From NCBI GenBank assembly GCA_049697115.1, contig JBAVVD010000048.1:18151-82150 (forward strand): DNA of 64,000 nucleotides, read 5' to 3'. Below the pieces are notes generated by a model. That model had not been told where the DNA came from, did no database searches, and worked only from the letters and a program-made list of their open reading frames with translations. Shown here one piece after another: positions 1,262 through 19,450 of this stretch. The position numbers and the translations under genes are program-made. Every line of letters begins with the position of its first letter. Positions within the stretch are counted from its first letter, which is position 1. Source of the DNA: Candidatus Aminicenantales bacterium (lineage in GTDB: Bacteria; Acidobacteriota; Aminicenantia; Aminicenantales; UBA4085).

Positions 1262-2563
<1,302 letters not shown>

Positions 2564-2575
2564 ATAAAGCAGGCC

Positions 2576-4180
2576 ATGGAAGAGGATCGGGAAAATAAAA
2601 GACACCTCACTCCGTCGGATATTGAAATCGAAAACCTCTACTCAGCCGCAGACCTGAAGGATTTTAATCCTGCCGAAAAACTGGGAAAACCGGGCGAATT
2701 TCCTTTCACCAGGGGCATCTATCCGACCATGTACCGTGGAAAATTGTGGACGATGCGCCAGTATGCCGGCTTCGGCACAGCCGAGGAATCCAATCAAAGA
2801 TACCGCTTCCTCCTCTCCCAGGGACAGACGGGATTGAGCGTCGCCTTTGACCTGCCAACCCAGCTCGGCCTGGACTCCGATTCGCCTCTCGCCAGGGGCG
2901 AGGTGGGGAAAGTGGGAGTCGCCGTCGACTCCCTCGACGATATGGCCGCTCTCTTCAGTCATATTCCCCTGGACAAAGTCAGCGTCTCGATGACCATCAA
3001 TGCCACGGCCGCCATCATTCTCGCCATGTATCTTGCCCTGGCTGAAAAGAAAGGCGTTCGGTGGCCGGCTCTTTCCGGAACGATCCAGAATGACATCCTC
3101 AAGGAATATATCGCACGCGGCACTTATATTTTTCCTCCGCAGGCCTCTCTCCGACTCATCATCGACAGTATTTCCTTCTGTCAGAGGCACGTTCCCCGCT
3201 GGAATACGATGAGCATCAGCGGCTACCACATCCGTGAAGCCGGCGCAACGGCCGTCCAGGAGCTGGCCTTCACCTTTGCCAACGCGATTGCCTATCTGGA
3301 GGCCCTGATCGCGGCGGGGCTGGATGTGGATTCTTTTGCCCCGAGGCTTTCCTTTTTTCTGGCCGCCCACAACAATTTCCTTGAGGAGATTGCCAAATTC
3401 CGAGCGGCCCGCCGCATCTGGGCGAATCTCGTTAGGGACTGGTTTAAAGCCAAAAATCCCCTTTCCTGGAAATTCAGGTTCCACACGCAGACGAGCGGGG
3501 CCACACTCCTCGCCCAGCAGCCGGAAAACAACGTCACGCGGGTTACGCTCCAGGCCCTGGCCTCGGTTCTCGGAGGCACGCAATCTCTCCACACCAATTC
3601 CCGGGACGAAGCCCTAGCCCTTCCCAGTGAAGAATCCGCTCAGATTGCCCTGCGGACCCAGCAGATCATCGCCCATGAAAGCGGCGTGACGAATACCGTG
3701 GATCCGGTCGGGGGCTCTTATTTCGTCGAATGTCTGACGGACGAAATCGAAAAAAGAGTGGACATTTATCTGAAGAAAATCAAAGACATGGGCGGCATGC
3801 TCACAGCCATTGAATCCGGATTCATCCAGAAGGAAATCCAGGAAAGCGCCTATCTGTTCCAAAAGGAGATTGAGCGAAAAGAGCGGATCGTCGTCGGGCT
3901 CAATGAATACAGGAAAGAGGATGAAGCTCTCAGCTTTGAAATATATCATCCACCGAAAGAACTGGAGAAAGCCCAGGTTGAAAAATTACAGCACCTTAAA
4001 CAAAAGAGGTCGAAACATCAGGTTGAGCGGCGGCTCCAGGCACTGAAAGAGGCCATCCCCACGCAAAAAAATCTCATGCCGCCGATCATCGAGGCGGTCA
4101 AAGCGAAAGCGACTCTCGGCGAGATCACTTCCGTCCTCAAAGAAGCCTACGGCGAATACCAGGAAGACGTTTCCCTCTGA
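2576..4180 (+). CDS. methylmalonyl-CoA / acyl-CoA mutase family, large catalytic subunit without the B12-binding domain
   Basis: The 534-aa product contains [37 protein letters not shown], typical of the mutase N-terminal (substrate-binding) domain. No C-terminal cobalamin-binding domain is present in the ORF. Confidence 0.85.
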
Positions 4181-4226
4181 ATCCTGATCTGGATCATTCG
4201 GCGCAATTTGATGAATATCTAAGAAA

Positions 4227-5552: not shown

Positions 5553-5771
5553 ATGAATACAGTAATTTCAGTCAGGCTTCCCAAAGAACTTGCCGAACAA
5601 CTCGACAATATAGCCAGGGAAACAGAGAGACCACGCTCTTTCATCATACAAAAAGCCTTAGAGTCCTACATCGAAGATTTCGCGGATCTTCAGGTGGCAC
5701 TCGACCGTCTCCACGATAAAAGTGATCCTATCATTTCCGGCAAAGAGCTGAGGAAATCTCTTGGTCTATAA
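5553..5771 (+). CDS. ribbon-helix-helix (CopG/RelB-like) antitoxin
   Basis: The product begins MNTVISVRLPKELAEQLDNIARETERPRSFIIQKALESYIE, an RHH fold signature. It overlaps the downstream RelE-like gene by 11 nt. The listed ORF starts at 5496, but the RBS-supported start is 5553. Confidence 0.7.
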   Translation: MNTVISVRLPKELAEQLDNIARETERPRSFIIQKALESYIEDFADLQVALDRLHDKSDPIISGKELRKSLGL

Positions 5772-6021
5772 TATTGTCTACAAGAAATCAGTCCAACGCG
5801 ATCTCAAAAAGCTGTCAAAATCAGAGGCTAATCGTATTCTCGATCAAATAGAACAGGAGCTTTCAAAGAAACCGGAGTCAAATCCAGCCCTCAAAGGTCA
5901 ATTTGCCGGGCTTCGCAAATTTCGAGTTGGGGAATACAGGGTTATCTACGCATTATTGAGAACAGATGTTCTTATCCTGAGAGTCGGACATCAAAAGAAT
6001 ATCTATAAAAGCGAAATCTAA
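5761..6021 (+). CDS. RelE/ParE-family type II toxin
   Basis: The 86-aa product contains VQRDLKKL...GEYRVIYALLRTDVLILRVGHQKNIY, a RelE/StbE pattern. It is translationally coupled to the upstream RHH antitoxin. Confidence 0.8.
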   Translation: MVYNIVYKKSVQRDLKKLSKSEANRILDQIEQELSKKPESNPALKGQFAGLRKFRVGEYRVIYALLRTDVLILRVGHQKNIYKSEI

Positions 6022-6102
6022 CGCCGGGCATAACCGGTTTTAAAATGCGGGGGCATGAAATGCCGAAGCATTTTAAAATCCGTGTTAATGCCTTTGTTAG
6101 AC
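6016..6102. other. attC-like recombination site (imperfect palindrome)
   Basis: The site reads ATCTAAC(G)...cggttttaaaatgcg...cgaagcattttaaaatccg...GTTAGAC. The R''-like 7-mer is at 6016-6022 and the R'-like GTTAGAC at 6096-6102. It overlaps the RelE stop codon. Confidence 0.5.
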
Positions 6103-6194
6103 CTGTTTTTTGCATTTTATGATACCAAGCCATGTATTAACTGGATCTATATACAGCTCATCACCAAAACCCAGTTCAGCTCTTACAAGTTGCC

Positions 6195-6644
6195 TCAGGT
6201 TATTAGAGCAACTATAGGATTATCCGTATTGCCTGTCACTATCTCCAAGAAACATTTGATTATCTCATTATTATCTATCGTAATTAACAATTCATTATGG
6301 CATTGGCGGGCCTCAACTTCGGTGGTATACTGCTTGTCAATATTTACAGGCCTTCCGTCATTATCTTTGTTTATGATATGATTAAATTGTGCGTCTACAA
6401 TCGTAAGCAGTTTCATACAAGCGTTATATTTTAACTCATATTTTTTCTCGTTAATACGATCAAGTTTGTTTAAATCTATTTTTACAGATTCGACCTTCTG
6501 AGTAATATCCCTTATGTCTTCCTTGGTAGCAAGATTTTCTCCTTTTTTCTTTAGATAACTTGTAAGTGCATTCTTAATCAGTAAGGTTGCTATCCATATT
6601 CCGATGACTATTACTATGTTCAATATCAAAATAATGTAGTCCAT
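6195..6644 (-). CDS. hypothetical membrane-anchored protein (AT-rich cassette ORF)
   Basis: The ORF is open to 6689, but the internal Met (MDYIILILNIVIVIGIWIATLLI, TM helix) avoids overlap with the attC-like site at 6660-6748. I did not recognise a family. Confidence 0.35.
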   Translation of the reverse strand: MDYIILILNIVIVIGIWIATLLIKNALTSYLKKKGENLATKEDIRDITQKVESVKIDLNKLDRINEKKYELKYNACMKLLTIVDAQFNHIINKDNDGRPVNIDKQYTTEVEARQCHNELLITIDNNEIIKCFLEIVTGNTDNPIVALIT

Positions 6645-6659
6645 ATATTCTCCTTGAAG

Positions 6660-6748
6660 GTCTAACGTAAAACTAAGCCGCCCCGCCACAGACCTTTGCC
6701 AAAAACAAACCAGCTTTATTCCGGGTTGGCTTGAGTGATTCGTTAGAT
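6660..6748. other. attC-like site
   Basis: GTCTAAC (6660-6666) pairs with GTTAGAT (6742-6748). The outer stems are cTAACGtaaaACTaAGCC and GGCTtgAGTgattCGTTAG, around a variable centre. Confidence 0.5.
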
Positions 6749-6760
6749 TAGCAGTTCATT

Positions 6761-7213
6761 TTAACAGAAGCCATTTTTTTCTAAGAATTTGATGCCCTTT
6801 TTCAGAGCTTCTTTATATGCATTGCTTTTCCACCAGTTACCATGGCTGTGAATAAGACCGTTTCTCTTTGCATTGAAGTTATTTAGATTACTGTAATCGT
6901 CATAGTTTATTGCGCCCAAGAAATGAGACCATTTGATAAGTTTGTAAGTAGACGTATTAGCTTTGTCTTTTCCATTTTTGCTATTCTCAATTTTGGCCCT
7001 GACCTCAGTTTCTTTTTGATCTTTAAAGGTCTTAACTATTTTATCCCACAATATAGTTTCGATAGCGAGTTGAGCATGCACGAATGCTTCAATAGTTTGA
7101 TTTTTTTTCATCATGTCTCTTATAGCATTGGCGCATTTGTATCTAACGACTTGCAATCTCTCGCCGCCCTCAGCTAAATCAGAAACAGCCATGTCTCTTT
7201 TCTTCTTGTTCAT
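6761..7213 (-). CDS. hypothetical protein with RNxxxH (HEPN-like Rx4-6H) motif
   Basis: The 150-aa, AT-rich product contains the C-terminal motif AKRNGLIHSHG. It is bounded by attC-like sites on both sides. Confidence 0.45.
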   Translation of the reverse strand: MNKKKRDMAVSDLAEGGERLQVVRYKCANAIRDMMKKNQTIEAFVHAQLAIETILWDKIVKTFKDQKETEVRAKIENSKNGKDKANTSTYKLIKWSHFLGAINYDDYSNLNNFNAKRNGLIHSHGNWWKSNAYKEALKKGIKFLEKNGFC

Positions 7214-7225
7214 GTCATTTTTTCA

Positions 7226-7282
7226 ATCTAATGTGCTGATCAGCGGCGGCTGTAAGCCGTCCGCTGGATTAGCTTGTTGGGT
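7226..7282. other. attC-like site
   Basis: The site reads CTAATG...ctgatcagcggcggc tgtaa gccgtccgctgg...ATTAGc ttGTTGGGT. The GTTGGGT core is at 7276-7282. Its stem sequence is related to the sites at 8471 and 11457. Confidence 0.45.
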
Positions 7283-7285
7283 CTG

Positions 7286-7771
7286 TTACTCGTTGTATCC
7301 GGCCTGTTCTAACCTCCTGAGTAAAAGAGACGCGAGTGAGAGGTGATCCAAACATTGATCCGGCGAGTCGCTTATGGAGTATTCATGACCCCTCGGATTG
7401 CGAATTGCCAACATGGCACCCGCGAAAACGAACTGGAAGCCTCTCTGTTCGTCTTGTTCACTTGTCGTGATGTTTGCATTGAGCACCACGCTTGGGGACT
7501 TTCCTCCGAATGCCTGCATCATGAGCTTGAAACCTGCTTCAGTTGAGGCCACAATCTTCTGAATTAGTTTGTCCAGATACTTGAATGCTTCGAATGTTGC
7601 CTGTGAGTAGTGGCCGTTGTCGAATAGTGTTCGGACGATTTGTGGCAATGAATCATGGATATCCCTCTGCTCAAAGGGGTGTTGTATCCCGAGATCGCGC
7701 GCTTCAACTTGAGTAAAACGATATGCTTGGCGGGCAATCCGCTCAAATCGATTCAGACGTGCGTCAGCCAT
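7286..7771 (-). CDS. Abi_C / TIGR02391-like protein (HEPN-like, RNxxxH)
   Basis: The 161-aa product contains GAMLAIRNPRGHE (R-x4-H). It overlaps the upstream gene by 8 nt, so the two form a two-gene cassette. Confidence 0.55.
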   Translation of the reverse strand: MADARLNRFERIARQAYRFTQVEARDLGIQHPFEQRDIHDSLPQIVRTLFDNGHYSQATFEAFKYLDKLIQKIVASTEAGFKLMMQAFGGKSPSVVLNANITTSEQDEQRGFQFVFAGAMLAIRNPRGHEYSISDSPDQCLDHLSLASLLLRRLEQAGYNE

Positions 7772-8444
7772 TCAGGAGATTCTCTCTTATGCTTTTGAAG
7801 ATGCGATCGTAGGTCTCTTGTGTTCCCTCGGCTGGCAGATTGATCTCAATACGCACCGTTAGCCCAACGTCGCGAACCTTCAGACCTCCATTAACACCTG
7901 TCTTTGGTTCTGATTTTTCCTTTGCCTTTGTGACCTCCAGAGGAGTCGCTTTTGCCTGCTTCTTCTTTGGCTTTTTGTCGGCGTCGGTTTTGGATGTGCC
8001 TTTGGCTTCTGGTAACTCATGATGTCCTGACAGGCCGCTCAACGTTAGAAAGGTGTTCGCTTGCCGCTTGCCAACGATAGCACTTGATTGGTCGTTCTGT
8101 CGGAAGAAAGTGATGAGTTGGGATGAATTAAGACCCCAGGTCTTCTCACCGTGGAGCGCAAAGAGCTCCTTGTAGCCCGTTGTTACAAGCTGCGCAAAAG
8201 CTTTCTGGAAGTCTTTATCCTGATGCAGAGAAAATATTTTGCCTGCAGCTTCCGTTTTGCCGCCATCCTTGTCGATGAGGCCAAGGAACCGAAGTGTACT
8301 GATTATGTATGTTTCATTCTTTGGGGCGTAGCCCAACTTCTTCAACGTGTCTGCCGTTAATGATGCCGGAAATGAGCTACGGAGATGGTTTATCACCTGG
8401 ATCAAACCACCAGCGCTTGTTATGTACGGATGTTTGTCCGCCAT
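7764..8444 (-). CDS. hypothetical protein, partner of the Abi_C-like gene (Lys-rich linker; possibly DUF5343-like)
   Basis: The 226-aa product has a lysine-rich low-complexity linker (KKPKKKQAKATPLEVTKAKEK) between two globular parts. It is co-oriented with and overlaps 7286..7771. Confidence 0.45.
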   Translation of the reverse strand: MADKHPYITSAGGLIQVINHLRSSFPASLTADTLKKLGYAPKNETYIISTLRFLGLIDKDGGKTEAAGKIFSLHQDKDFQKAFAQLVTTGYKELFALHGEKTWGLNSSQLITFFRQNDQSSAIVGKRQANTFLTLSGLSGHHELPEAKGTSKTDADKKPKKKQAKATPLEVTKAKEKSEPKTGVNGGLKVRDVGLTVRIEINLPAEGTQETYDRIFKSIRENLLNG

Positions 8445-8470
8445 GTCATCTTCCTCCTTCTTTCTTTTTG

Positions 8471-8531
8471 ACCTAACGTTCCGGTTCAGCGGCAGCGCTT
8501 CCGCGCCGTCTGCTGAAACCGATTGTTAGGC
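8471..8531. other. attC-like site
   Basis: ACCTAACG (8471-8478)...ggttcagcggcagcgc ttcc gcgccgtctgctgaaacc...GTTAGGC (8525-8531), about 61 bp, the classic 59-be size. It overlaps the 3' end of the DUF4365 ORF. Confidence 0.6.
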
Positions 8532-9445
8532 TTCGATATCAAATAGCTCTTTGAAAGGAATGAAATCATGTGCAGCGCTGCCTCAATCTGCTGGCGTCGA
8601 ACCAGTGGCAGCGCCTCTGCGGCGAAGGTTACCTCGATGCCCGCAAACTCGTATCCAGCAGGCAGTTCACGAAGCTTCGGATATGCCATGCAGGCGTGCG
8701 CCTCGAAGGCGGCGAGCCAGGCCCCAATCTCTTTGTGCGCATCGCTGCCGCTAGCCAACAATGAATGCAGTGAGCGTACAGCGGCGAGAGCGTCTCTATA
8801 CTGACACTGCTCGTGCAGCACGAAGAACAGCGCGTCGTGATCTCTGCGAAGCAGGTCAGCAGCATTGGGTTGATTCGGCGCATGGTCGAGTGCCACAAGA
8901 TTCTGCACAGCAACCGCAAGTGCCTCGACAGTGGGAATCAACCTTGCAGCCGAACGGGCCGCATCCAGCGCGGCCCTTAGATTACCATAGTGTCGCTTGA
9001 GGCTATCTTTGATCGCGTCCCATCCTTTCGCGTCAAGCACATTCTGCACTGGGATGCGGATAGACAACGTCTGACTGGCGCAGCTAATCACCTCAGCTGG
9101 TGATGCGAATAGGTCGAGATGCCACGAATACCAAGCACGTCCGTATCCGATGTCTACTGCGATAACAAGCGTAGGCTGGGGCGAAGCAAACCAATAGAAG
9201 ACGGATGAACGAGGTATGCCAGACTTGATAACCCAGCCATCGCGAATCGTTGGATTCTCGGTTGTCTTTACCTGCACCGAGAACTCAGTATTGTGCAATG
9301 GCGAGTGATCGCGAATAACAACCAAACCGTCCTTGCCCACATCACGGCGAGGGGGCTGCCATATCCAGCCTACTGGAAGCTGAGACGCGAACCAGAACTC
9401 CCCTTGGTCGCCGACAGCCCAGTTGCTTTGTCGTTTCGATTCCAT
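8486..9445 (-). CDS. DUF4365-like (PD-(D/E)xK nuclease-like) protein
   Basis: The N-terminal AVGDQGEFWFASQLPVGWIWQPPRRDVGKDGLVVI resembles the DUF4365 GE...GW...D.GiD signature. The gene is roughly 60% GC, far above its neighbours, which indicates foreign origin. Its start codon is only 13 nt from the core site at 9459-9465. Confidence 0.55.
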   Translation of the reverse strand: MESKRQSNWAVGDQGEFWFASQLPVGWIWQPPRRDVGKDGLVVIRDHSPLHNTEFSVQVKTTENPTIRDGWVIKSGIPRSSVFYWFASPQPTLVIAVDIGYGRAWYSWHLDLFASPAEVISCASQTLSIRIPVQNVLDAKGWDAIKDSLKRHYGNLRAALDAARSAARLIPTVEALAVAVQNLVALDHAPNQPNAADLLRRDHDALFFVLHEQCQYRDALAAVRSLHSLLASGSDAHKEIGAWLAAFEAHACMAYPKLRELPAGYEFAGIEVTFAAEALPLVRRQQIEAALHMISFLSKSYLISKPNNRFQQTARKRCR

Positions 9446-9458
9446 CGCTAGTTCGTAA

Positions 9459-9610
9459 GCCTAACTATTAATATACCGCATGCTGTATTTGATACAGATC
9501 TCCCTTCATTGACGTCGTATATTATGTGATTCCATCAAATATCCCCGCAAAGTTGCAGTATTATTTTAAAATTAACCATATTAAATTGCAAGTTGTATAT
9601 TTTACGACGG
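9459..9610 (+). repeat. attI-like/platform repeat copy A (about 150 bp, AT-rich)
   Basis: Copy A begins at the core GCCTAAC (9459-9465). It is about 80% identical to the reverse complement of 10435-10592 (copy B) and shares its first 50 bp with copy C at 19286. It contains a TTGCAA-N17-TAAAAT promoter on the minus strand. Confidence 0.7.
9563..9591 (-). promoter_or_regulatory. outward-facing sigma-70-like promoter inside repeat A (candidate cassette promoter)
   Basis: On the minus strand: TTGCAA (9586-9591), a 17-nt spacer, then TAAAAT (9563-9568). It reads toward the DUF4365 cassette run. Confidence 0.45.
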
Positions 9611-9682
9611 AATTATCCAGCCCGAAAGAGTTGCTTGAACAATAATCAAAAAAACCTCATCGAGTTTGAAGATTTTATAAAG

Positions 9683-10341
9683 CAGTTCCGATTGTCTTAA
9701 CTCGTGAAGAGGTTCATCGCCTCTTTTCCTTTCTTGAGGGGCCCTATCTTCTCATGTCTCAATTGCTCTATGGAAGCGGCCTCCATCTTCTGGAATGCAT
9801 ACAATTGAGAGTCAAGGACATCGATTTTGCCAATAATTTGCTAGTCATTCGGGCGGGAAAAGGAGAGAAAGACAGAACCACCATACTGGCGGACAAGATC
9901 AAGGAGTCTCTGAAAGCCCATTTGAAGAGAATCAAGAAGTTGCATGACCAGGATTTGGCAAAAGGATACAGGGGGACAACGCTTCCTGATGCCCTGGAGA
10001 AAAAATATCCGAATGCCAATAAAGAATGGGCCTGGCAATGGGTGTTCCCCTCGAAAAGCCTGGTGGTCCATCCTAGGAGCGGCAGGGTCATGCGTCATCA
10101 TATCCAACCCAGTACGCTTCAAAGGATGATAAAAGACGCTCTAAGAAAATCGAAGATTTCAAAACCTGCAAGCTGTCACACGCTGCGGCACAGTTTCGCT
10201 ACGCATCTTCTGGAAGCAGGGCATAATATCCGAACGATCCAGGAACTCATGGGCCATAAGAACGTGAATACCACGATGATATACACTCATGTGGCTCGAA
10301 AGAGTTATTCGGACATTTCTAGCCCTTTGGACAAACTGTAA
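9683..10341 (+). pseudogene. intI: integron integrase IntI remnant (5'-truncated; catalytic box I Arg replaced by His)
   Basis: The frame is open from the TGA at 9680. PIVLTREEVHRLFLFLEGPYLLMSQLLYGSGLHLLE...ALEKKYPNANKEWAWQWVFPS...HTLRHSFATHLLEAGHNIRTIQELMGHKNVNTTMIYTHV aligns with IntI1 from about residue 115 to the C-terminus, including the IntI-specific insertion. The first 100 or so codons are missing, and the upstream homologous sequence is interrupted by stops. GMRISE is replaced by GLHLLE. Confidence 0.8.
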
Positions 10342-10434
10342 GAAATGCCGAAAAGACTAAGCGGTTGTTTCCGAGATATCTCACGCTCCGTAAAACTTCC
10401 GCGGCTATCTGGTAAATAATCGCTCCTCTGATGG

Positions 10435-10592
10435 ATATTTGAGTCGTCAAATATACGACTTGCAATTTAATATGGATATTTTTAAGATAAGACTGCAATT
10501 TTGATGGGATATTTGATGGAATCACATAATATGCGACGTTAAAAAAGGAAGATTTGCATCAAATACAGCATGCTGTATAGTAATAGTTATGC
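10435..10592 (-). repeat. attI-like/platform repeat copy B (inverted copy of A)
   Basis: The reverse complement aligns with copy A over about 150 bp. Its outer end is GTTATGC (10586-10592), 42 nt before the ATG at 10634. Confidence 0.7.
10460..10488 (+). promoter_or_regulatory. outward-facing sigma-70-like promoter inside repeat B
   Basis: TTGCAA (10460-10465), a 17-nt spacer, then TAAGAT (10483-10488). It reads toward the right-hand cassette run. Confidence 0.45.
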
Positions 10593-10633
10593 GTCCCCAA
10601 AATAATATGCTTCATTAATTTGGAGGTTGAGAT

Positions 10634-11443
10634 ATGTCTTTTAACATTCAAAGAATATTAGACTCAGTTGTAAAGACTCTAGATCGAATTATTAATATGC
10701 TTGATATAGCTTTGAACGCATTTTACAAATTTTTAGACTATCTCATAAAAACGTTTGAAGAAGTTGCAAAAAAAATACTTGATCTACTTACTAATCTACT
10801 TAGGGTTGTTTTTTATATTCTCCCTTTTATTTTTATGATTATCATTGGTTCTCAAAAGAATTGGTTTTGGATGTCAATTACTGGATGGGCAGTAATCATA
10901 TTTGTTCTCGTTCTTTTCTTCAGAGACTTTATTGCCGAGATTAAGGGTGATAATAAAACTTCAAGCCAAAATATGCCGATTCAATCCAAAAGAGCATTTA
11001 TTGTTATTCTCATACTAAATGTGTTATTAATCTCGTATTCTTTTATTTTTTATTTCGTTGGCATTAGCCCTGAAAAATATATTTTGGAATTTATTACAGA
11101 AGCCCCAGCAAATGAGAAAGCTAATGAGATTCGAGAGGCAGAATATTTGAATATAATTTCGGCAAAAAATAATACTGATTTTTCCTCTACTATATCCACT
11201 ATCTCAAATCTTGGATTGTTAAAATCATCCAAGGCATCTCCAATACTCATTGAAAAACTGAATGGTTTTATAGCAAAAGAATTGAATGAAAACGAAACAA
11301 AAGAAGTAACTGCAATTATTGAAGCCCTTGAAAATATAGGTGGAGAGGATGCTTGCAATTCATTAGTTAAATTTGAGGTAAACTGTAGCAACAATGATTT
11401 AGTTCTTAAAGCAAGAAAAGCGGCTAACAAAATATGTCGTTAA
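10634..11443 (+). CDS. hypothetical membrane protein with C-terminal HEAT-like repeats
   Basis: The 269-aa product is strongly AT-rich. It has TM helices in the middle and ends with AIIEALENIGGEDACNSLVKF...LVLKARKAANKI, resembling HEAT/PBS-lyase repeats. A GGAGG RBS is present. Confidence 0.45.
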   Translation: MSFNIQRILDSVVKTLDRIINMLDIALNAFYKFLDYLIKTFEEVAKKILDLLTNLLRVVFYILPFIFMIIIGSQKNWFWMSITGWAVIIFVLVLFFRDFIAEIKGDNKTSSQNMPIQSKRAFIVILILNVLLISYSFIFYFVGISPEKYILEFITEAPANEKANEIREAEYLNIISAKNNTDFSSTISTISNLGLLKSSKASPILIEKLNGFIAKELNENETKEVTAIIEALENIGGEDACNSLVKFEVNCSNNDLVLKARKAANKICR

Positions 11444-11456
11444 ATATTATTAAAAC

Positions 11457-11515
11457 GCATAACAAGTCATTGCAGCGGACTGCGTAAACGCCGCCGCTGA
11501 ATTCTATCGTTAGAC
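11457..11515. other. attC-like site
   Basis: GCATAAC...cattgcagcggactgcgtaaacgccgccgctg...GTTAGAC (11509-11515). The stem is related to the sites at 7226 and 8471. Confidence 0.5.
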
Positions 11516-11546
11516 TGCAAGAGACATAGAAAGATAGGAGGCAAGG

Positions 11547-11927
11547 ATGTCCCACGAATTCACAGAACGCGGACAAGCGGAAAATGTGCATGGCGAGGTT
11601 GTTAAAGCCACACCCGGAGCGATCGATCCTTCGGAGAAAGACTGGCCCGAGGTACTTGACCGCAGTGTCAATCGGGTCGCGGACGTTATTCAGGAACGGC
11701 AGCAGCTCCAGCATGAGCTAAGTAAGGCCACGATCTCGATCGACAAAGGCCTCCTGCTCGTAATTGGACTTGCCCTACTTGCAACCCTTTTGTTCACGTT
11801 CTATATGCTTGCCCGAGACAAGCTCCAGGCGGTCACTCAGGTACTCTATCCAATCCTCACCGCCTTGCTGGGTTTCATGAGTGGCTACTTTGCTGGGTCA
11901 GGTAGAAAGGGTGCTCGTCAGAAGTAG
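11547..11927 (+). CDS. hypothetical membrane protein
   Basis: The 126-aa product has a C-terminal pair of TM helices. It is followed at once by an attC-like site. Confidence 0.4.
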   Translation: MSHEFTERGQAENVHGEVVKATPGAIDPSEKDWPEVLDRSVNRVADVIQERQQLQHELSKATISIDKGLLLVIGLALLATLLFTFYMLARDKLQAVTQVLYPILTALLGFMSGYFAGSGRKGARQK

Positions 11928-11936
11928 GAGTGAGCA

Positions 11937-12032
11937 GTCTAACCCGGCGCTGCAGCTGGCGGATCACCGTCACGGCCTTTGCAGCCGCAAGGCCCGTGCC
12001 AGGACCCGCAGCTGAGCGCCAGTCCGTTAGGC
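11937..12032. other. attC-like site
   Basis: GTCTAAC (11937-11943)...ccggcgctgcagctggcgg...ccgcagctgagcgccag...CGTTAGGC (12026-12032), about 96 bp. Confidence 0.6.
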
Positions 12033-12073
12033 AGAATGGCCTTGGTGAACCTGCCTCACAGGAGGAGTGCAAG

Positions 12074-12940
12074 ATGCGCCGTTTCCTATTGGCTTGCATG
12101 CTTATCGTTTCAGTCATGCCGAGCTCTGCACCGACGCAGCCAGCTCAATCAGTGCCCATCGAGTTCCTTAGCGGGGGAGAATACGTTAGAGGCCAGTTCT
12201 TCGGGAGCGCAGATGGAGATCCGATAGCAACGCTGGTCCTCCTCCCCGGCTGGCCAGGAGACCCACGCGACGTACTCGGATTGGGGGCCCTTCTTGCGCG
12301 GCTGAACGTGAACGTGCTCATGTTCAACCCGCGCGGTCTGTATCAGAGCGAGGGCACATCGACTTTTGCACACACCCTCGAGGACATCGCCGCATCCCTG
12401 AAGTGGCTCAGACAGGCGGATACGCGTCAGCGGTTCAGGGTCGACATCGACCGTATTGCGTTGGGGGGACACAGCTATGGTGGGGGCATGACCATGGCAT
12501 ATGCGGCTGCCGATCCCGGGATCCGGCGAGTGATCTCGATTGCCGGCAACGACCACGGGGACTTCATCCGTAGGATCCAGAGTGATCTTCAGTTCGCGGA
12601 GGACATGCGGCAGATGTTGGCGAGTACCCGTGCACCAAATGGTCCAGCCAGGTTTGACCTGGAAACTGGACTAAAGGACCTTGCTGATCATCAAGATATA
12701 TATGGCCTCAGAGAGAATGCTCCGCGTCTTGCCGACCGCTCCATTCTGCTTGTTGGCGGTTGGGAAGATGTGCAGGTCACAGTGGAGGACGTGCTTCTTC
12801 CGTTGTATCGGTCTCTGAAGGCTGCCGGAGCGTCCGACGTTACATTCCTCACGTACCATGACGATCATGGGTTTGGGACAGTGCGGCAGCAATTGGCCGC
12901 AGATATCCAGCAATGGCTAGTTCGCCACATGCCCAAGTAG
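12074..12940 (+). CDS. secreted alpha/beta hydrolase (dienelactone-hydrolase-like)
   Basis: The product has a signal peptide (MRRFLLACMLIVSVMPSSAP) and a GGHSYGG nucleophile elbow. The gene is about 62% GC. The ORF listed from 11930 spans the attC-like site, and the RBS-supported start is 12074 (AGGAGG). Confidence 0.65.
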   Translation: MRRFLLACMLIVSVMPSSAPTQPAQSVPIEFLSGGEYVRGQFFGSADGDPIATLVLLPGWPGDPRDVLGLGALLARLNVNVLMFNPRGLYQSEGTSTFAHTLEDIAASLKWLRQADTRQRFRVDIDRIALGGHSYGGGMTMAYAAADPGIRRVISIAGNDHGDFIRRIQSDLQFAEDMRQMLASTRAPNGPARFDLETGLKDLADHQDIYGLRENAPRLADRSILLVGGWEDVQVTVEDVLLPLYRSLKAAGASDVTFLTYHDDHGFGTVRQQLAADIQQWLVRHMPK

Positions 12941-12947
12941 AGCCTCT

Positions 12948-13020
12948 GTCTAACAAGCGCCTGCATCAGTCAGCCGCTTCGCGGTTGCTGGTGAGACGCA
13001 GCGTCAGCTGCGCCAAAACA
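12948..13020. other. attC-like site (weaker)
   Basis: GTCTAAC (12948-12954) is followed by a GC-rich imperfect palindrome, but only a degenerate right end (cGTTTTAGc). Confidence 0.3.
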
Positions 13021-13082
13021 ACGTTTTAGCATCTTGACGTTATAACATTGTGATGCTATGCTTACTTGTGGAGGTGATTTTC

Positions 13083-13316
13083 ATGAGCGAAACTACAAAG
13101 CGTTCAACTATATACTTCAAGCCGGAGCTTCATCGAGCTCTACGAATCAAGGCTATTGATACCCAGCGTAGCTTGTCTGATCTCGTAAATGACGCGGTTC
13201 AAATGGCTCTTCGCGAGGATGAAGAGGACCTCTCTGCATTTGATGAGCGGGCGAGCGAGCCTACGTTGACATATGAAGAACTGCTCAGGGATCTGAAAGC
13301 TCATGGGAAAATATAG
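13083..13316 (+). CDS. antitoxin of a RelE/ParE module (RHH/Phd-like)
   Basis: MSETTKRSTIYFKPELHRALRIKAIDTQRSLSDLVNDAVQMALRE is antitoxin-like. It overlaps the toxin gene by 14 nt. Confidence 0.6.
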   Translation: MSETTKRSTIYFKPELHRALRIKAIDTQRSLSDLVNDAVQMALREDEEDLSAFDERASEPTLTYEELLRDLKAHGKI

Positions 13317-13566
13317 ATTAGTCTTCAAGAAATCGGTCGCGAAGGATCTGCGTGATCTCCCGAAGAAAGATGTCGCTCGCATCCTGAAATATTTCAATGC
13401 GTTATCAGAGAATCCGCGCGCTCCTGGTTGCGAAAAGTTATCTAGCCAGGAAAGATATCGAGTTCGGCGGGGTGTGTACCGTATTATTTATGAAATCAAG
13501 GATGATGTATTGACAGTAATCGTGATAAAAGTCGGCCACAGGCGTGATGTCTATAAGGGCAGCTGA
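13303..13566 (+). CDS. RelE/ParE-family type II toxin
   Basis: The 87-aa product reads LVFKKSVAKDLRDLPKK...GVYRIIYEIKDDVLTVIVIKVGHRRDVY. It is a paralogue of the toxin at 5761..6021. Confidence 0.8.
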   Translation: MGKYRLVFKKSVAKDLRDLPKKDVARILKYFNALSENPRAPGCEKLSSQERYRVRRGVYRIIYEIKDDVLTVIVIKVGHRRDVYKGS

Positions 13567-13612: not shown

Positions 13613-14023
13613 TTAGCCTCGCGCATTATCCTCATCAATTATTTTGCAGCCTTCGGTCCAATCCGCGTAAACCTGCCAATGCTTGATCTTATCGTTCTCC
13701 ACTATAGCCTTCCAGGCGGCTGGCATTTCAATCCTGTTCTCAGGGACAAGCCCGCGCTTACCGTTGTAAGTCCCGGAAGCGGACCCGAAGACTGCGACGA
13801 GGCCTCTATCTTGGAGCATACTCTGGACTTCGATTCTGTAGTCGGGAAACATGCGGAAGTATTGGTTCCATCCTTTTGTCATGTTTTCGCGGCCCGACTC
13901 GACTTTGCCACTAGAGTCCACAAAGTTGTGGTCTTCCGCCATCAAGCTGGAGAGTTTAGAAATATCACCTTTATTGATAGCGGTAATAAAGGCCTTTACG
14001 ACACCGATCTCGCTTGAATCCAT
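13613..14023 (-). CDS. NTF2/SnoaL-like domain protein
   Basis: The 136-aa product is flanked by the complementary cores GTTAGCC (13612-13618) and GGCTAAC (14040-14046). Confidence 0.45.
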   Translation of the reverse strand: MDSSEIGVVKAFITAINKGDISKLSSLMAEDHNFVDSSGKVESGRENMTKGWNQYFRMFPDYRIEVQSMLQDRGLVAVFGSASGTYNGKRGLVPENRIEMPAAWKAIVENDKIKHWQVYADWTEGCKIIDEDNARG

Positions 14024-14213
14024 CCTGTTTTCTCCCTTGGGCTAACAATTACCATATAATATGCAGTGAAACAATGGACTATCAGGAGATTCTTTTCGAA
14101 ATCAATATCTTTGACTCAGAGCTTAACACATTCCATGAATCGGAAAAGTCCTTCCTCAAAGGAGATTTCGCGCAGGCCGCATCTCCCTGCTTTTAGATTT
14201 TCGCTAAAGCTTT

Positions 14214-14609
14214 TTATTGAGAAGAAGACTCAAATGCTCCATGCGATTTGAAATCAACATTGACATTTTTTTGGTCGAATGAATACCATGCCCCTGTAGC
14301 CGCATCAACAATGATAGGAATTAATCCGGCTAAGACATCCAAAATAACCCATCCCACTCCCACGTGATTATTTAAGTTTATCGTTTTTGTTTGGCCGCCA
14401 TACTTAAACTCGATGACGTATGTTTTTTTTGTTATCAATTTGAAATTTATGGGAGCCCTTCCCATCATTTTGCCATCAACCCATATCTCCGCGCCACTCG
14501 GGTTAGAGCCGAAATTGACTTCTTCCGATGTTCCCTTAAACAGAGTGGCGCAGTTTGTCAGATAAAAACAGAGACAAAATACAAGTAACGCTGAAATTTT
14601 AGCTTTCAC
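14214..14609 (-). CDS. PEGA-domain lipoprotein
   Basis: The product has a signal peptide and lipobox (LTNC) and the PEGA-like stretch SNPSGAEIWVDGKMMGRAP. Confidence 0.45.
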   Translation of the reverse strand: MKAKISALLVFCLCFYLTNCATLFKGTSEEVNFGSNPSGAEIWVDGKMMGRAPINFKLITKKTYVIEFKYGGQTKTINLNNHVGVGWVILDVLAGLIPIIVDAATGAWYSFDQKNVNVDFKSHGAFESSSQ

Positions 14610-14847: not shown

Positions 14848-14904
14848 GGCTAACAAGGCGCATGCACCGGACGCCGATGGCGCCGGTGATACTTAACATT
14901 AGCC
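14848..14904. other. attC-like site with no adjacent ORF
   Basis: GGCTAAC...caccggacgcc gatg gcgccggtg...ATTAGCC. The 10-bp stem is nearly perfect. Confidence 0.5.
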
Positions 14905-15033
14905 GGTAATAAGAAACTTTCTCATGAGATTCTGTGTATTAAACTAATAATGTAATAACACTTATGGCTTCAATAAACTGATTTGAACTTCTTCTTTCTT
15001 GAAAAGTTACTCTTGTTAGGTGTTTTTGTTTGA

Positions 15034-15236
15034 TTCACAGGCGAAACCAGTTTTATGTTCTGCTGCCTCTTTCAAGATTTTGAAGCCGCCGCGTAGCACG
15101 ACAACTGCGATGACAAAACCAATGACAAGATCGGGATAGCGGCTGCCCAGAGCCCAAACCAGGACGCCGGACAAAATAACGCCAACATTGGCAATAAGGC
15201 CTAACGCCTGAAATAACCCGCACGGTTTTACCGTGT
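15034..15236 (-). pseudogene. cation diffusion facilitator (CzcD-like) transporter gene fragment
   Basis: The minus-strand translation ALGLIANVGVILSGVLVWALGSRYPDLVIGFVIAVVVLRGGFKILKEAAEH resembles the last TM helices and start of the C-terminal domain of CDF transporters. There is no start codon and the fragment runs into an attC-like site. Confidence 0.35.
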
Positions 15237-15258
15237 CGGATTGATGGACTTGTTAGCC
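15199..15258. other. attC-like site
   Basis: GCCTAACG...cacggttttaccgtg...GTTAGCC (15252-15258). Confidence 0.45.
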
Positions 15259-15262
15259 ACTG

Positions 15263-15970
15263 TTATTCCTCAATGGACCCTCCTTTTTCCCGCAAGTGTC
15301 TACGGAACGTATAGGTTGGATCCTTGGATCGCTTCTTTAAGTATTCGTCAAACCGGAGTTGGTCACGAAGCTTTCTTCCAGCCCGTATTTCCTCCGCCTG
15401 TCGTCGCTCCGTTTGCCAAATGATGCGTGCAGTAGAGATAAGTTCATCGGCATGTTGAATTGGGGCGAAAAGAACTCCGTCACCGTCAGCAAAAACAATG
15501 TCCTCCTTTGATACATGGAAATCGCCAAAAAGAGCGGTCGTGAGTGCATCGGCATCGGGTGAATCAAGCCGCTGGGGACCTGTCGGGCAAGTGCCGTAAC
15601 TGAAGATTGGGAAACCAATATGGTTAAGCTCCGCCGTATCTCTGTGACAGCCCCAGACAACGATTCCTGCCAATCCACTCGCTTGAGCCTCCAATGCCGT
15701 TAAATCTCCAATACACCCTTCATCCATTCTTCCTCTATTATCTATGACAAGAATGTCTCCTTGTTGTGCGGTCCCCATGGCTTCAAGAAAGATATCCACG
15801 CTGCCGTAGTGTTTCACGGGCAAGGCTCTGCCAGCAATACGGCTCCCCGCAGGTAATGTACGAATGCCTGGAGGCGCGACGCGAGTGGGCAAGCCCAAAC
15901 GCAAGCAAGCATCCGCTATGAGCGGGGTTGAGAGATCTGATAAAGCACTATTCAAGTCTTGGTTTTTCAT
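15263..15970 (-). CDS. RraA-family protein (RNase E regulator / HMG-CHA aldolase-like)
   Basis: The 235-aa product contains STPLIADACLRLG...GDILVIDNRG...VVWGCHRDT...GFPIFSYGTCP, typical RraA/MenG family blocks. Confidence 0.7.
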   Translation of the reverse strand: MKNQDLNSALSDLSTPLIADACLRLGLPTRVAPPGIRTLPAGSRIAGRALPVKHYGSVDIFLEAMGTAQQGDILVIDNRGRMDEGCIGDLTALEAQASGLAGIVVWGCHRDTAELNHIGFPIFSYGTCPTGPQRLDSPDADALTTALFGDFHVSKEDIVFADGDGVLFAPIQHADELISTARIIWQTERRQAEEIRAGRKLRDQLRFDEYLKKRSKDPTYTFRRHLREKGGSIEE

Positions 15971-16062
15971 TCAAAGCTCCGTTGTGACCAACTGCAAGGC
16001 TCAGGGGCGCAAGGGCTTACTCGCATCCGCATACCAAAAACGCACAGAAACAGATGCAGTGT

Positions 16063-16120
16063 GTCTAACATTCATGTTTTCAAACATCGCCTTTGCATCC
16101 ACCGTAAACGATTGTTAGGC
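16063..16120. other. attC-like site
   Basis: GTCTAAC (16063-16069)...ATGTTTTCAAACAT...GTTAGGC (16114-16120), 58 bp. Confidence 0.55.
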
Positions 16121-16121
16121 A

Positions 16122-17342
16122 TTATTTTGATTTAACATTCGTCGCTATTTCAATTTCTGAAAATTCTGTCGCCTGTTTTATTAAGTCAATATCTGGTTGT
16201 TCCATAAGATATTTGTCAAAGAAAGCCAAGACGAGCACATTCATGATCTCGACGGTTTTTTTCCCATTGATAGATCCTAGAAGAAATTTGACTGCCGAAA
16301 TAGGATAGACGGAATAGTCAGATAAATTGTAGTGATCTGAATCTTTTACACTTAAGGAGTAACAATCCATCTTGGATTTACTTGTGAATATTTTACCGTA
16401 CCCTAAAAACCGTTTACTATTCAGAAACATGGTAGGTGTTTGAATTTCCCTCTCCAATGATGAACCGATTAATCCGCCATCCATATTGACGCATGCCTTG
16501 ATTCTTTTATCTGAAAGACAAATTTCACTTGATGCAATCCCCCCCATCGACATTCCGAATACCCCAATTCTATCAAGGTTCAATTTTTCTTTAAATATTT
16601 TGTTTTCATTGTTCATACCCTCTAATTGATCCATGAAAAATGAAATATCTTCTGCCCAATACCTTGGACTTTCTGTTAGAGCAGTGGGCAAAACATTGTT
16701 TATATCCACAAAAACTTGTCTACGCTCCTCGTCATTGCCGGCTTGATACATTTTTCGCATCAATTCCATGGCTTTGGGGTTTGTCATCTCTTGCATAATT
16801 TTCTGAAACCTAAGACTTTTCATGTCAATATAGATGAGCCGCCCATCTGGAAATGATGAAAATTTACATTCATAATGATGAGAAATACTAAAAACGATAT
16901 AGCCATGGCTTGCCAATTCTTCCATCAAGATTGAATTTTGTGAATAATGCTCACCCCACCCGTGAGAAAATATCAATATTGGGTATTTGTTTTCTTTGGA
17001 TGACACAGGTACATCACGACTTGAGTTTGTTTTCAAGTCCTTGTATATCTCTGGAAATTGAAGATACCTCATGACAAATTCTGCTTCGGCCTTCAGAAAA
17101 TAGGGTTCAGGATTGGATTTATGATCTGAGGGATACCATGCCTTCACTGTAATTTCTCTGTGACTTTCCTGATTGTTGTCAAATAATTCTTTTCGATTAT
17201 CATCAATAAAACTGAGGTAAGTTATTCCGACAAAATGTTTCCCCGTAGGTTTTGGTAATGTGTTGGTTTGTATTTGACCGGAATTACTTTGACCGCAATT
17301 AAATATCAGGCTGCAAAGAAATAAGATAAACATACGTCTCAT
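16122..17342 (-). CDS. alpha/beta-hydrolase lipoprotein (PAF-acetylhydrolase-like)
   Basis: The product has a lipobox (LFLCSLIFNCG), an oxyanion-hole-like FSHGWG and a GMSMGG nucleophile elbow. The gene is AT-rich. Confidence 0.5.
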   Translation of the reverse strand: MRRMFILFLCSLIFNCGQSNSGQIQTNTLPKPTGKHFVGITYLSFIDDNRKELFDNNQESHREITVKAWYPSDHKSNPEPYFLKAEAEFVMRYLQFPEIYKDLKTNSSRDVPVSSKENKYPILIFSHGWGEHYSQNSILMEELASHGYIVFSISHHYECKFSSFPDGRLIYIDMKSLRFQKIMQEMTNPKAMELMRKMYQAGNDEERRQVFVDINNVLPTALTESPRYWAEDISFFMDQLEGMNNENKIFKEKLNLDRIGVFGMSMGGIASSEICLSDKRIKACVNMDGGLIGSSLEREIQTPTMFLNSKRFLGYGKIFTSKSKMDCYSLSVKDSDHYNLSDYSVYPISAVKFLLGSINGKKTVEIMNVLVLAFFDKYLMEQPDIDLIKQATEFSEIEIATNVKSK

Positions 17343-17426
17343 TTTGTTTTTCCTTTCAAATTAAAACCTGACGATTTAAGCCATCGGGGGAAATAAGCCG
17401 TCCGTTGGAGTGGTTTGTGTTTCGCT

Positions 17427-17789
17427 CTATATTTCTTCAAATTCCTTTAGTGTCTTTTTAGTTATTATATCACCTGTATGTTTTATTTTCGATGATTCTA
17501 AAACGACCATCCACGTTTCCTCATCAGCGAATGGCCTATGCTTTTTCCCTTTTGGGATGACCGCCAATTCTCCTGGATTTAATTCAATGATTCCTTCTTC
17601 TAATTCAATTCTGAATTTACCTTTTATTACATAAAACAATTCATCTTCATCTTTATGGTCATGCCAATCCAATTCACCGTTGACTTTAACAATTTTCACA
17701 TCATAGTTATCAACCCGACTAATGACTTTCGGGCTCCATAATTCATCAAACTTTCTGAATTTATCCTCGAGGTTTATTACATTTATCAT
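17427..17789 (-). CDS. cupin-domain protein
   Basis: The 120-aa product contains HDHKDEDELFYVIKGKFRIELEEGIIELNPGELAVIPKGKKHR, a cupin_2 pattern. Confidence 0.65.
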   Translation of the reverse strand: MINVINLEDKFRKFDELWSPKVISRVDNYDVKIVKVNGELDWHDHKDEDELFYVIKGKFRIELEEGIIELNPGELAVIPKGKKHRPFADEETWMVVLESSKIKHTGDIITKKTLKEFEEI

Positions 17790-17811
17790 AGTATACCTTT
17801 CATCTTATTGC

Positions 17812-17901
17812 ACATAACGGCGAAGCTCACCGGCGGCGAAACGTAGCGGAGAGAACCGAAAAGCGAAGCTTTTTGGCGTCCGATTGACCGATTTGTTAGC
17901 G
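17812..17901. other. attC-like site
   Basis: ACATAAC (17812-17818)...GC-rich imperfect palindrome...GTTAGCG (17895-17901). Confidence 0.4.
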
Positions 17902-18342: not shown

Positions 18343-18365
18343 AATAAGGCACCCACTTCTTAGGT

Positions 18366-18424
18366 GCTAACGTGACAAGTGAGGCATGCATGTTACAGCA
18401 TCGCCTCGACTTGGTTTGTTAGCG
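18366..18424. other. attC-like site
   Basis: GCTAACG (18366-18372)...catgcatg...GTTAGCG (18418-18424). Confidence 0.5.
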
Positions 18425-19273
18425 GATTATGTTGTAATGTCTTCGCCACTGCCTGCGTGGCTCCAGTCGCACCCCTTCAATATACCGATTGAGGCGGTAC
18501 ATATCTCGCCCAGTTCTTTCAACAAGGGTTGGGCGTGCGACTCTATCTCGGATTATGTTGTAGCAACGCGCATAAAATTCCTTGGTCTCGTCTGGCCAAT
18601 TGTTGCAATATCCATTTTCCACTTCGATGAAACGTCTTATACAGTAAATCACAAGATCTGAGAACTGTATCATCGGGTTCCTGCGTAAGTCAATGGCATA
18701 GCTGAACTCGACAATCCACTTCACACGGTGGGTGGCAGCGCCACCGAAGCGGCGCTCCCGCATAATTCGCCCAATGTCATTGTGAAACTGCTCTTTTCTA
18801 TCCAGTATAATCATTCCTCGGGCTGACTGTCCGAGTCGCACTTTGACAAACCAGTTGATATACGTCACCAGATAGTCAAATCCAACAAGGTACGGTCGTT
18901 TCGGGTTATACGTCAATTTCATGCCAAGCGGTATATCTCTCATTCTTCGTTTGTCTATCGCTAAGTAGTGTACGTGGTGGGCTCGGTTAGGGAGTAGACC
19001 CAACACGTCCATGCAGAGTTGGTTTCTTCGGTCTCTGCATTCTCCTTGAAATGGACCGTTACCCTGTGGGCTCAGGAGTTCATCTGCGTGAAGTTCGAAG
19101 TCCGCCGGGAGATTGCCACCGAAGAAACGCTCGAGGCAGTGTTTCAATGCTTCGTGTGTTGCATTCCATCCTTCATCCCGAACGCTGACCCCGCCGATAA
19201 CCATAACTGGCTGATCGGGGTCATCAAGATTAGAACCCGTATCACCCGATTCGTCGATATAGTAGAAGTGCAT
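18419..19273 (-). CDS. DUF3800-family protein
   Basis: The N-terminal MHFYYIDESGDTGS matches the DUF3800 YIDESG signature. The 284-aa product is the first gene read outward from repeat copy C. Confidence 0.55.
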   Translation of the reverse strand: MHFYYIDESGDTGSNLDDPDQPVMVIGGVSVRDEGWNATHEALKHCLERFFGGNLPADFELHADELLSPQGNGPFQGECRDRRNQLCMDVLGLLPNRAHHVHYLAIDKRRMRDIPLGMKLTYNPKRPYLVGFDYLVTYINWFVKVRLGQSARGMIILDRKEQFHNDIGRIMRERRFGGAATHRVKWIVEFSYAIDLRRNPMIQFSDLVIYCIRRFIEVENGYCNNWPDETKEFYARCYNIIRDRVARPTLVERTGRDMYRLNRYIEGVRLEPRRQWRRHYNIIR

Positions 19274-19285
19274 TTCGTTCTTCCT

Positions 19286-19450
19286 CGCTAACTATTAATA
19301 TATTACATGCAGTAAAATGTGAAAAAAACTATTGAAAAAACGTCTTTTCATTGAGGAAGCCATCGATCAACACCTTAAGAATGCTGTAATGTTGTAATAT
19401 ATCTCATGTTATATTACAAGCTGTATATCTAATTTTTCCAATATTCGGCA
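19286..19450 (+). repeat. attI-like/platform repeat copy C (diverged)
   Basis: CGCTAACtattaatatattacatgcagta matches the first 35 bp of copy A, with patchy similarity after that. It abuts the start of the DUF3800 gene with an AGGAAG RBS. Confidence 0.5.

Follow-up and report, generated by a model that had tools for sequence, protein, structure and literature searches.

An integron integrase gene between two inverted attI-like modules in Candidatus Aminicenantales: a probable two-armed platform with a disabled integrase

The locus

This study concerns an inverted pair of repeats that encloses the remnant of an integron integrase gene (intI) in Candidatus Aminicenantales bacterium (NCBI GenBank assembly GCA_049697115.1, contig JBAVVD010000048.1, positions 18,151 to 82,150 of the forward strand). 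The whole stretch analysed, 64,000 nucleotides (nt) long, is called the window, and coordinates without a locus label refer to it. Each repeat is described below as a putative module that combines an integron attachment site (attI) with a cassette promoter (Pc), and each heads an array of gene cassettes marked by cassette recombination sites (attC). The features at the centre of the locus are as follows.

9459-9619, minus strand: putative attI/Pc module A, the arm at the 5' end of intI; inverted-repeat arm, nhmmer E = 1.5e-45 (110-copy profile)
9459-9465, minus strand: outer end of module A, core GCCTAAC (GTTAGGC on the minus strand), the outer limit of the repeat
9591..9586 and 9568..9563, minus strand: outward -35 TTGCAA and -10 TAAAAT of module A, a promoter-like match in a generic scan
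9635-10341, plus strand: deleted integron integrase gene, from translation and stop codons, TIGR02249 and alignment to full-length loci
10432-10592, plus strand: putative attI/Pc module B, 90 nt downstream of the intI stop; inverted-repeat arm, nhmmer E = 2.6e-45
10460-10465, 10483-10488 and 10586-10592, plus strand: -35 TTGCAA, -10 TAAGAT and core GTTATGC of module B
6016-9458, minus strand: left array, headed by module A (attC model R1, Pfam)
8471-8531, 7226-7282, 6660-6748 and 6016-6102, minus strand: attC sites of the left array (R1 scores 60.4, 49.0, 35.4 and 32.2 bits)
10593-13009, plus strand: right array, headed by module B (R1, open reading frames, Pfam)
11457-11515, 11937-12032 and 12948-13009, plus strand: attC sites of the right array (R1 scores 48.7, 45.8 and 30.5 bits)
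14848-14904, plus strand: a fourth attC to the right of arm B (R1)

The inverted repeat consists of arms at 9459-9619 and 10432-10592, each 161 nt long and 86% complementary to the other, separated by a spacer of 812 nt, and a window-wide repeat search found no other inverted repeat longer than 37 nt. A preliminary description of this DNA, made from the letters alone, had reported an inverted pair of about 150 bp with about 80% identity; the pair was recovered, with that size and similarity being slightly low. The similarity of the arms breaks off sharply at their outer ends, at GCCTAAC on the left (9459-9465, reverse complement GTTAGGC) and GTTATGC on the right (10586-10592). Both ends had been placed on cores of the GTTRRRY type, and the sharp ends at both cores stand, but the GTTATGC of arm B carries one mismatch to that pattern. 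The outward hexamers, TTGCAA-N17-TAAAAT in one copy and TTGCAA-N17-TAAGAT in the other, are present as positioned, and overall the coordinates, cores, flanking open reading frames (ORFs) and hexamers of the preliminary description were right to within a few bases.

The segment between the arms holds only the intI fragment, as had also been stated. About 14 N-terminal codons remain (TTG at 9635 to GATTTT at 9676), followed by an out-of-frame junction at about 9677-9684 and the catalytic domain at 9679-10341, in which an internal ATG leaves a residual ORF of 195 amino acids (aa) at 9754-10341. The fragment matched Pfam Phage_integrase at 2e-37 and TIGR02249 'integron integrase' with 324 bits (cut-off 265) over profile positions 97-315. 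Present in it are the insertion ALEKKYPNANKEWAWQWVFPS, which is specific to IntI, the HxxR and Y motifs, the IntI-specific stretch KKYPNANKEWAWQWVFPS and the HTLRHSFATHLL and MIYTHV motifs.

The attC sites were located with a covariance model (R1) built from 15 sites, all of them outside the window, with a strand discrimination of 30-45 bits. It replaced an earlier strict regular-expression and folding scan, which returned too few sites and could not assign strands to these near-palindromes, and it was more sensitive than a sequence-only hidden Markov model. On the plus strand the left-array sites scored 16.4 bits or nothing. With this model, which contains no window sequence, four minus-strand attC were found to the left of the pair and four plus-strand attC to the right, so that the divergent double array that had been proposed was borne out. 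The first gene beyond arm A is a DUF4365 ORF (9445..8486, minus strand) and that beyond arm B encodes a 269-aa membrane protein (10634-11443, plus strand); each reads outward and is followed by an attC on its own strand, in agreement with the flanking genes originally named. The left array continues with DUF5343 plus Hypoth_Ymh and with two ORFs of unknown function, and the right array with ORFs for a 126-aa protein and for an alpha/beta hydrolase. Past the right-array attC lies a toxin-antitoxin pair (13050-13566, plus strand).

The same pair around intI in relatives

An exact-pattern scan for a 25-nt motif of the repeat returned 8 stretches in GTDB genomes and 99 in metagenomes. The genome matches were metagenome-assembled genomes (MAGs) of Candidatus Aminicenantes, together with some MAGs labelled 'uncultured Eubacteriales'. 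About 110 module copies were recovered from Aminicenantes MAGs and metagenomes, and the same structure was found in independent NCBI, ENA and JGI assemblies. The nearest relatives of the window's IntI, at 83-89% identity, included full-length proteins of 373-375 aa and many truncated forms of 195 aa. Exact-sequence look-ups returned no record of the window's own 195-aa IntI ORF, nor of an 803-aa ORF of the window.

When repeat copies and intI were mapped on all loci, the module pair was found around intI in at least 16 of them. At locus L001, which has a full-length integrase (P0004), intI lies inside a 157-nt inverted pair that is 90% complementary, with 1411 nt between the arms, and L004 has the same layout; in L002 and L003 intI is truncated and the arms are about 810-895 nt apart. 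Five distinct loci have an intact intI ORF (L001, L026, L041/L072, L047 and L090), and in the remaining loci it has stop codons, frameshifts or many differing internal deletions; at L036 the arms stand back to back. From locus to locus the arms keep constant distances to intI, the 5'-side arm lying about 190 nt away from it and the 3'-side arm about 95-108 nt.

The orientation of attC was tallied by hand in 19 paired loci, and the eight sites of the window were added. To the left of the minus-orientation arm, 24 of 25 attC in this combined tally were on the minus strand, and the single plus-strand exception is accounted for by a neighbouring module of a second type. To the right of the plus-orientation arm, all proximal attC (33/33) were on the plus strand.

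Two further observations concern the full-length loci. At L001 the left arm is followed directly by a gene for a 944-aa TIR-WD40 protein (1379-4213), and the right arm by a 4.7-kb stretch (6028-10690) of seven genes (SLATT, three ThsB-type TIR, TGT-like, Ogg-HhH and QueC-like); no attC was detected between these cargo genes, and L001 looks like a case of defence-type cargo at both attI sites. The integrase of this clade is also long (L001 4442-4615 and the P0004 N terminus), with 375 aa from an ATG and possibly about 433 aa from an upstream in-frame TTG, and a SAM-like N-terminal motif appears to be duplicated in it (ARFYVYWVDRFLKYY and EKAYRIWINKFRNHL). The extension is interrupted by a stop codon at L026, which makes either start tentative.

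Conservation of the module and its two arm lineages

The conserved stretch of the 110 copies starts at about position 13 (GATGGATA), extends to ...TATTAATAGTTA and ends with GTT(A), after which conservation falls to background. GTT stands at the crossover in 101 of these copies and is followed by variable, RRRY-like bases. Beyond this end the first cassettes differ: 25 different flanks were counted for the 32 arms of the 3' side and 26 for the 32 arms of the 5' side. An ATG lies within about 40 nt of the end in most copies. A conserved end that meets varied first cassettes is the signature of an attI crossover, and the alignments argue for it on both arms.

Inside the module, TTGCAA (positions 29-34) and TAAGAT (positions 52-57) are separated by a 17-nt spacer in 107 of 110 copies, and among the 3'-side arms TTGCAA is present in 32/32 and TAAGAT in 31/32. 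This suggests that TTGCAA-N17-TAAGAT is an outward cassette promoter, for which putative status is retained. Support for this putative promoter lies in the conservation of the hexamers in relatives and not in the generic promoter scan, which detects only the arm A hexamers (TTGCAA-N17-TAAAAT, 9591..9563, minus strand). The earlier proposal that each copy behaves as an attI site plus cassette promoter is thus upheld at the level of sequence, since conservation falls off after GTT(A) and the hexamers are near-invariant over about 110 copies.

The divergence between arms (Jukes-Cantor 0.11-0.29) was compared with the synonymous divergence (dS) of the adjacent intI (0.34-1.18), and both arms were found to change 3-5 times more slowly. 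The arms group by side and not by locus: the main cluster consists of 23 3'-side arms and no 5'-side arm, module A groups with the 5'-side arms of other loci, and the mean identity is 0.90 among 3'-side arms across loci compared with 0.853 between the two arms of one locus. Since the arms cluster by side, the duplication predates the clade and has been retained. In the window, the outer half of arm B is of the 5'-side type, as is that of arm A, and these shared outer halves point to gene conversion rather than reciprocal inversion. No evidence for inversion of the intI segment was found in this pair, which is symmetric under reverse complement.

A structured RNA or riboswitch-like leader was considered for the module and ruled out. 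Rfam gave nothing above threshold in the module, RNAalifold gave no consensus structure (consensus energy -0.44 kcal/mol), and the palindromes CTGCAATTTTGCAG and ATACAGCATGCTGTAT had no covariation above shuffles. In a few loci the module is interrupted by a 390-aa lipoprotein-like gene without an attC, which lies between GATGGAA and (T)CACATAAT (module position 90/91) and is bounded by a 9-nt direct repeat, ATTGTCTTA (L109 3368-4603; L099 5392-6625; L059 from 5247).

The deletion in intI

Alignment to the full-length loci shows that 589-595 nt are missing from the window's intI and that the gene continues, out of frame, from about residue 155; the deletion has removed the N-terminal domain of IntI. 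The junction is alike in L002, L003, L051 and L060. What remains of the window's gene is nearest to the full-length intI of L041 (90.6% nt identity) and that of L002 is nearest to the full-length intI of L026. The alignments argue that the state in which only an intI fragment is present is a secondary deletion of about 590 bp within an otherwise standard unit.

The truncated, catalytic-only ORF of 195 aa (window 9754-10341; P0007-P0012 and P0024) is open in three diverged lineages, and one 90%-identity cluster of this form holds 73 member sequences. Its ratio of nonsynonymous to synonymous divergence (dN/dS) of 0.09-0.15 cannot separate constraint after the deletion from divergence before it; the short protein may be under maintenance, or it may just have arisen several times in the recent past.

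The left breakpoint recurs elsewhere. L006 has a different, in-frame intI deletion with the same left breakpoint as the window, and some solo modules are joined at the same intI breakpoint to an attC, exactly at the crossover G of that attC. Three kinds of rearrangement therefore occur at one breakpoint near the start of intI, namely the deletion of about 590 nt (in two lineages), the in-frame deletion of L006 and the fusion to an attC G. All lie after GAATTTGAAGA(T/A)TT (window 9674-9684; L006 about 7950-7965; L043 2205-2215; L059 5100 and 6830; L099 6905; L109 7850). The end of GAATTTGAAGA(T/A)TT looks like a breakpoint hot spot and may be a secondary target of IntI; integrase-mediated insertion outside att sites has been reported (bioRxiv 10.1101/2022.09.11.507474). 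A 33-nt match between the start of intI (9635-9667) and 14406-14438, inside a PEGA-domain ORF, was taken as chance.

Alternative explanations

The interpretation adopted here, at a probability of roughly 0.8, is that the locus is the platform of a two-armed sedentary chromosomal integron, that this type is typical of the lineage, and that the integrase has been disabled. The repeat, its boundaries, the identity of IntI, the attC strands, the conservation and the arm-specific lineages in relatives were computed directly. Three features of an integron are found at the locus: an IntI with its specific domain, an attI-like G|TT junction beside intI, here once on each side, and co-oriented attC reading away from it.

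The preliminary description had offered two origins for the mirror image, and neither fits the relatives. One was recombination between inverted attI-like copies, weighed here as a single event in this genome, in which attI was duplicated in inverted form or an inversion took place between two integrons. The break of intI at the edge of arm A looks at first sight like the junction of such an event, but it is an internal deletion that left the first 14 or so codons in place. Moreover, complete intI genes bear the same pair at constant distances in many independent loci, and the arms are side-specific lineages that predate the clade, which leaves a one-off origin scarcely credible. The other was an element like a miniature inverted-repeat transposable element (MITE) with a preference for attC/attI targets. 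It was weighed here in a wider form, with the repeats as the inverted termini of an intI-bearing MITE, insertion sequence or transposon-like element that favours attC or attI cores. Long terminal inverted repeats around a recombinase gene, sharp boundaries, flanks that are different in every locus, and solo or multiple same-orientation copies on some contigs (L043, L059, L088 and L109) would all suit such an element. However, no target-site duplication was found in any of 18 pairs, where the longest shared flank word averaged 2.4 nt compared with 2.7 nt in shuffled pairings, and no transposase is present. Had an element inserted into an existing array that reads one way, the attC to its left and right would share one orientation, whereas in essentially every locus they face outward as mirror images. 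The repeats end on G|TT, as is canonical for IntI sites, and all copies examined adjoin intI or its remnants or head a cassette run. A generic MITE had been expected in dozens of copies without adjacent cores; copy number is instead low (three in 64 kb and at most four per contig), with the GTT end in 101 of 110 copies. A mobile element is therefore considered very improbable.

It could also be that only the 5'-side arm is a working attI and that the 3'-side copy has been kept as a promoter, a terminator, a regulatory module or an antisense control of intI, with the genes beyond it having arrived in some other way. Classical integrons do have attI 5' of intI, and the two arms differ in sequence (0.82-0.85 identity). 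This is nonetheless considered unlikely: conservation is higher in the 3'-side arms (0.90 between loci) than in the 5'-side arms, and the 3'-side arms share the GTT end, meet 25 different first cassettes in 32 arms and are followed by plus-strand attC.

Several results do weigh against the two-armed interpretation. The generic promoter scan misses the hexamers of arm B (TTGCAA-N17-TAAGAT, 10460-10488, plus strand), and its matches in the region (7, with 3.5 +/- 1.9 expected) are not above chance. The direct repeats to which IntI would bind were not confidently mapped; what was found was limited to recurring TGGATA and CTTGCAAT/CTGCAAT motifs plus one palindrome of 16 nt. No recognisable attC was found near either arm of L001. 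Of the 110 copies, 46 are without a detected adjoining intI, and some of these lie inside arrays after an attC. Given these copies without intI, a module can occur, and may perhaps spread, outside a pair. Finally, six other IntI loci, of 57-70% identity, lack a long pair, though some of their contigs are short on one side, which makes the absence less certain for those.

Spread beyond the first integrase lineage and other platforms in the window

A second intI (L047 8022-9515, equivalent to L004 15120-16486) encodes a protein 45% identical to P0004 and lies 7 kb from the first on the same contig, inside its own inverted pair of 184 nt, 79% complementary. The outer end of this second-type module, ...GCTGTATAATATATGTTAGAC, resembles that of the first type. 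Solo modules of the second type head arrays at L001 497-679, L003 1111-1291 and L040 10068-10249. The six IntI loci without a pair include MAGs of Deltaproteobacteria, Spirochaetes and Verrucomicrobia. The two-armed layout is lineage-limited, yet it is not confined to one narrow clade.

The window holds further elements of this kind to the right of the central platform.

15199-19285, minus strand: array headed by module C (R1, Pfam)
18367-18422, 17812-17900, 16063-16120 and 15199-15258, minus strand: attC sites of this array (R1)
19286-19444, minus strand: module C, a third, diverged copy with no intI beside it (nhmmer E = 2.8e-11, profile positions 4-161; alignment)
14041-14217, minus strand: possible relic of a further platform (weak), an attI-like outer end at 14041-14076 (GGCTAACAATTACCATATAATATGCAG...) fused to a 47-codon IntI fragment at 14077-14217

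The first ORF after module C, a DUF3800 gene (19273..18419), begins 13 nt past the core. The module C array converges head-on with the plus-strand array of arm B (junction at 14904-15199), and the plus-strand attC at 14848-14904 stands alone between minus-strand runs. The IntI relic resembles …ECVKLRVKDIDFEKNLLIVH and was matched in tblastn searches at E = 1.6e-4 (P0004 residues 186-214) and E = 4e-4 (second IntI lineage); a SnoaL cassette (14023..13613, minus strand) lies beyond its attI-like end. These weak matches hint that the relic marks another decayed platform. Degenerate module copies at 19445-19516 and 20985-21096 were also considered, and these candidates were too weak to claim.

The region from about 5.5 to 21 kb of the window is thus a cluster of integron platforms. 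Enolase, methylmalonyl-CoA mutase, MutL and PilB genes are carried by the surrounding chromosome, and the enolase shares 100% identity with a protein encoded on a 91.5-kb contig of a Candidatus Aminicenantales MAG. In the central platform, each array has a pair of toxin and antitoxin genes of the ParE/RelE type at or close to its far end (5761-6021 and 13050-13566, both plus strand); toxin-antitoxin pairs are common in sedentary chromosomal integrons. Head-on junctions of convergent arrays also occur at L041 (1-132 with 673-2887) and L004 (13124-13997), and such genomes apparently carry several platforms clustered in alternating orientation.

Proposed mechanism

The proposed model is one intI between two inverted modules of about 150 bp, each of which would be an attI, with the crossover G|TT at its outer end, plus an outward promoter, TTGCAA-N17-TAAGAT, that precedes the crossover by about 100 nt. 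Both modules would be bound by IntI, and circular cassettes would be inserted through the folded bottom strand of their attC at either attI. Two arrays would then lengthen away from the integrase, one to either side, and the promoter of each arm would drive the array that it heads. We infer the binding of IntI to the modules, the insertion at both arms and the promoter activity from sequence, and all three are putative. In the window, the deletion of about 590 bp took away the N-terminal DNA-binding domain of IntI and shifted the frame. With the platform disabled, its two arrays (four attC each) would be frozen unless IntI acts in trans.

Recombination of attC uses the bottom strand and depends on the direction of replication (PMC5371416). 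As the two arrays have opposite orientations relative to replication, one arm should be more dynamic than the other, and this dependence would yield one excision-prone 'working' array and one stable 'archive' array. The GC skew of the window is weakly negative throughout, which is only a hint that the bottom strands of the right arm are on the lagging-strand template. Within arrays, solo attI/Pc modules may supply promoters and insertion points anew. A broader proposal, to which even odds are given, is that two-armed integrons are an undescribed architecture ancestral to at least two Aminicenantes IntI lineages, in which one integrase builds two divergent arrays, a 'working' and an 'archive' one, arm loss is a route between orientations, and solo modules re-seed arrays.

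Two practical points arise. Integron annotation that expects attC on a single side and strand would split or mis-orient loci like these, and the conserved 150-bp module is a ready probe for integron platforms of an uncultured phylum.

Comparison with known systems

Textbooks describe the integron as a single attI with a single array, and the same is assumed by tools and models. In the searchable literature, the coverage of which is incomplete, nothing was found on natural integrons that have a second attI or a divergent pair of arrays around a single intI; an earlier description may exist. If the two-armed interpretation is true, the number of cassettes adjoining a promoter would be doubled.

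Compared with classical integron platforms (class 1 and the sedentary chromosomal integrons of Vibrio and Xanthomonas), the locus shares an IntI with the specific insertion, an attI beside intI and the G|TT junction, as well as a putative outward cassette promoter, promoterless ORFs each with an attC, a chromosomal location and toxin-antitoxin cassettes. It differs in having two inverted attI/Pc modules around intI and two divergent arrays, in the length (about 150 bp) and strong conservation of the module, and in the solo modules found within or between arrays. Of the two arms, the one on the 5' side has the classical layout. Clusters of attC lacking an integrase (CALINs) are similar in that attC arrays occur without a nearby intI, as at 15199-19285 and on many metagenomic contigs, but here the arrays are still headed by an attI/Pc module and often adjoin intI remnants. 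In Hin/hix invertible segments, a serine recombinase acts between inverted sites and a promoter points outward. The likeness is a recombinase gene between inverted recombination sites with outward promoters; the difference is that IntI is a tyrosine recombinase and that a putative promoter lies in both arms, so inversion would switch nothing.

The closest comparison for the 3'-side arm is the inverted-orientation integron of Treponema and archaea (PMC4889954, PMC9668308), in which intI, attI and cassettes are likewise co-directional. The classical and 'inverted' orientations are paraphyletic (PMC4889954), and a two-armed platform would, if real, be a mechanistic bridge between them, with the loss of one arm as a simple route. 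Until now this effect of orientation on cassette stability has been studied only in engineered systems or through comparisons among genera (PMC5371416); a natural lineage with two functional attI around one integrase would offer a ready-made experiment on how the direction of an array with respect to replication sets the stability of its cassettes. However, the inverted-orientation integrons have been described with one attI and one array (PMC4889954, PMC9668308), whereas in the loci reported here an upstream divergent arm is present too.

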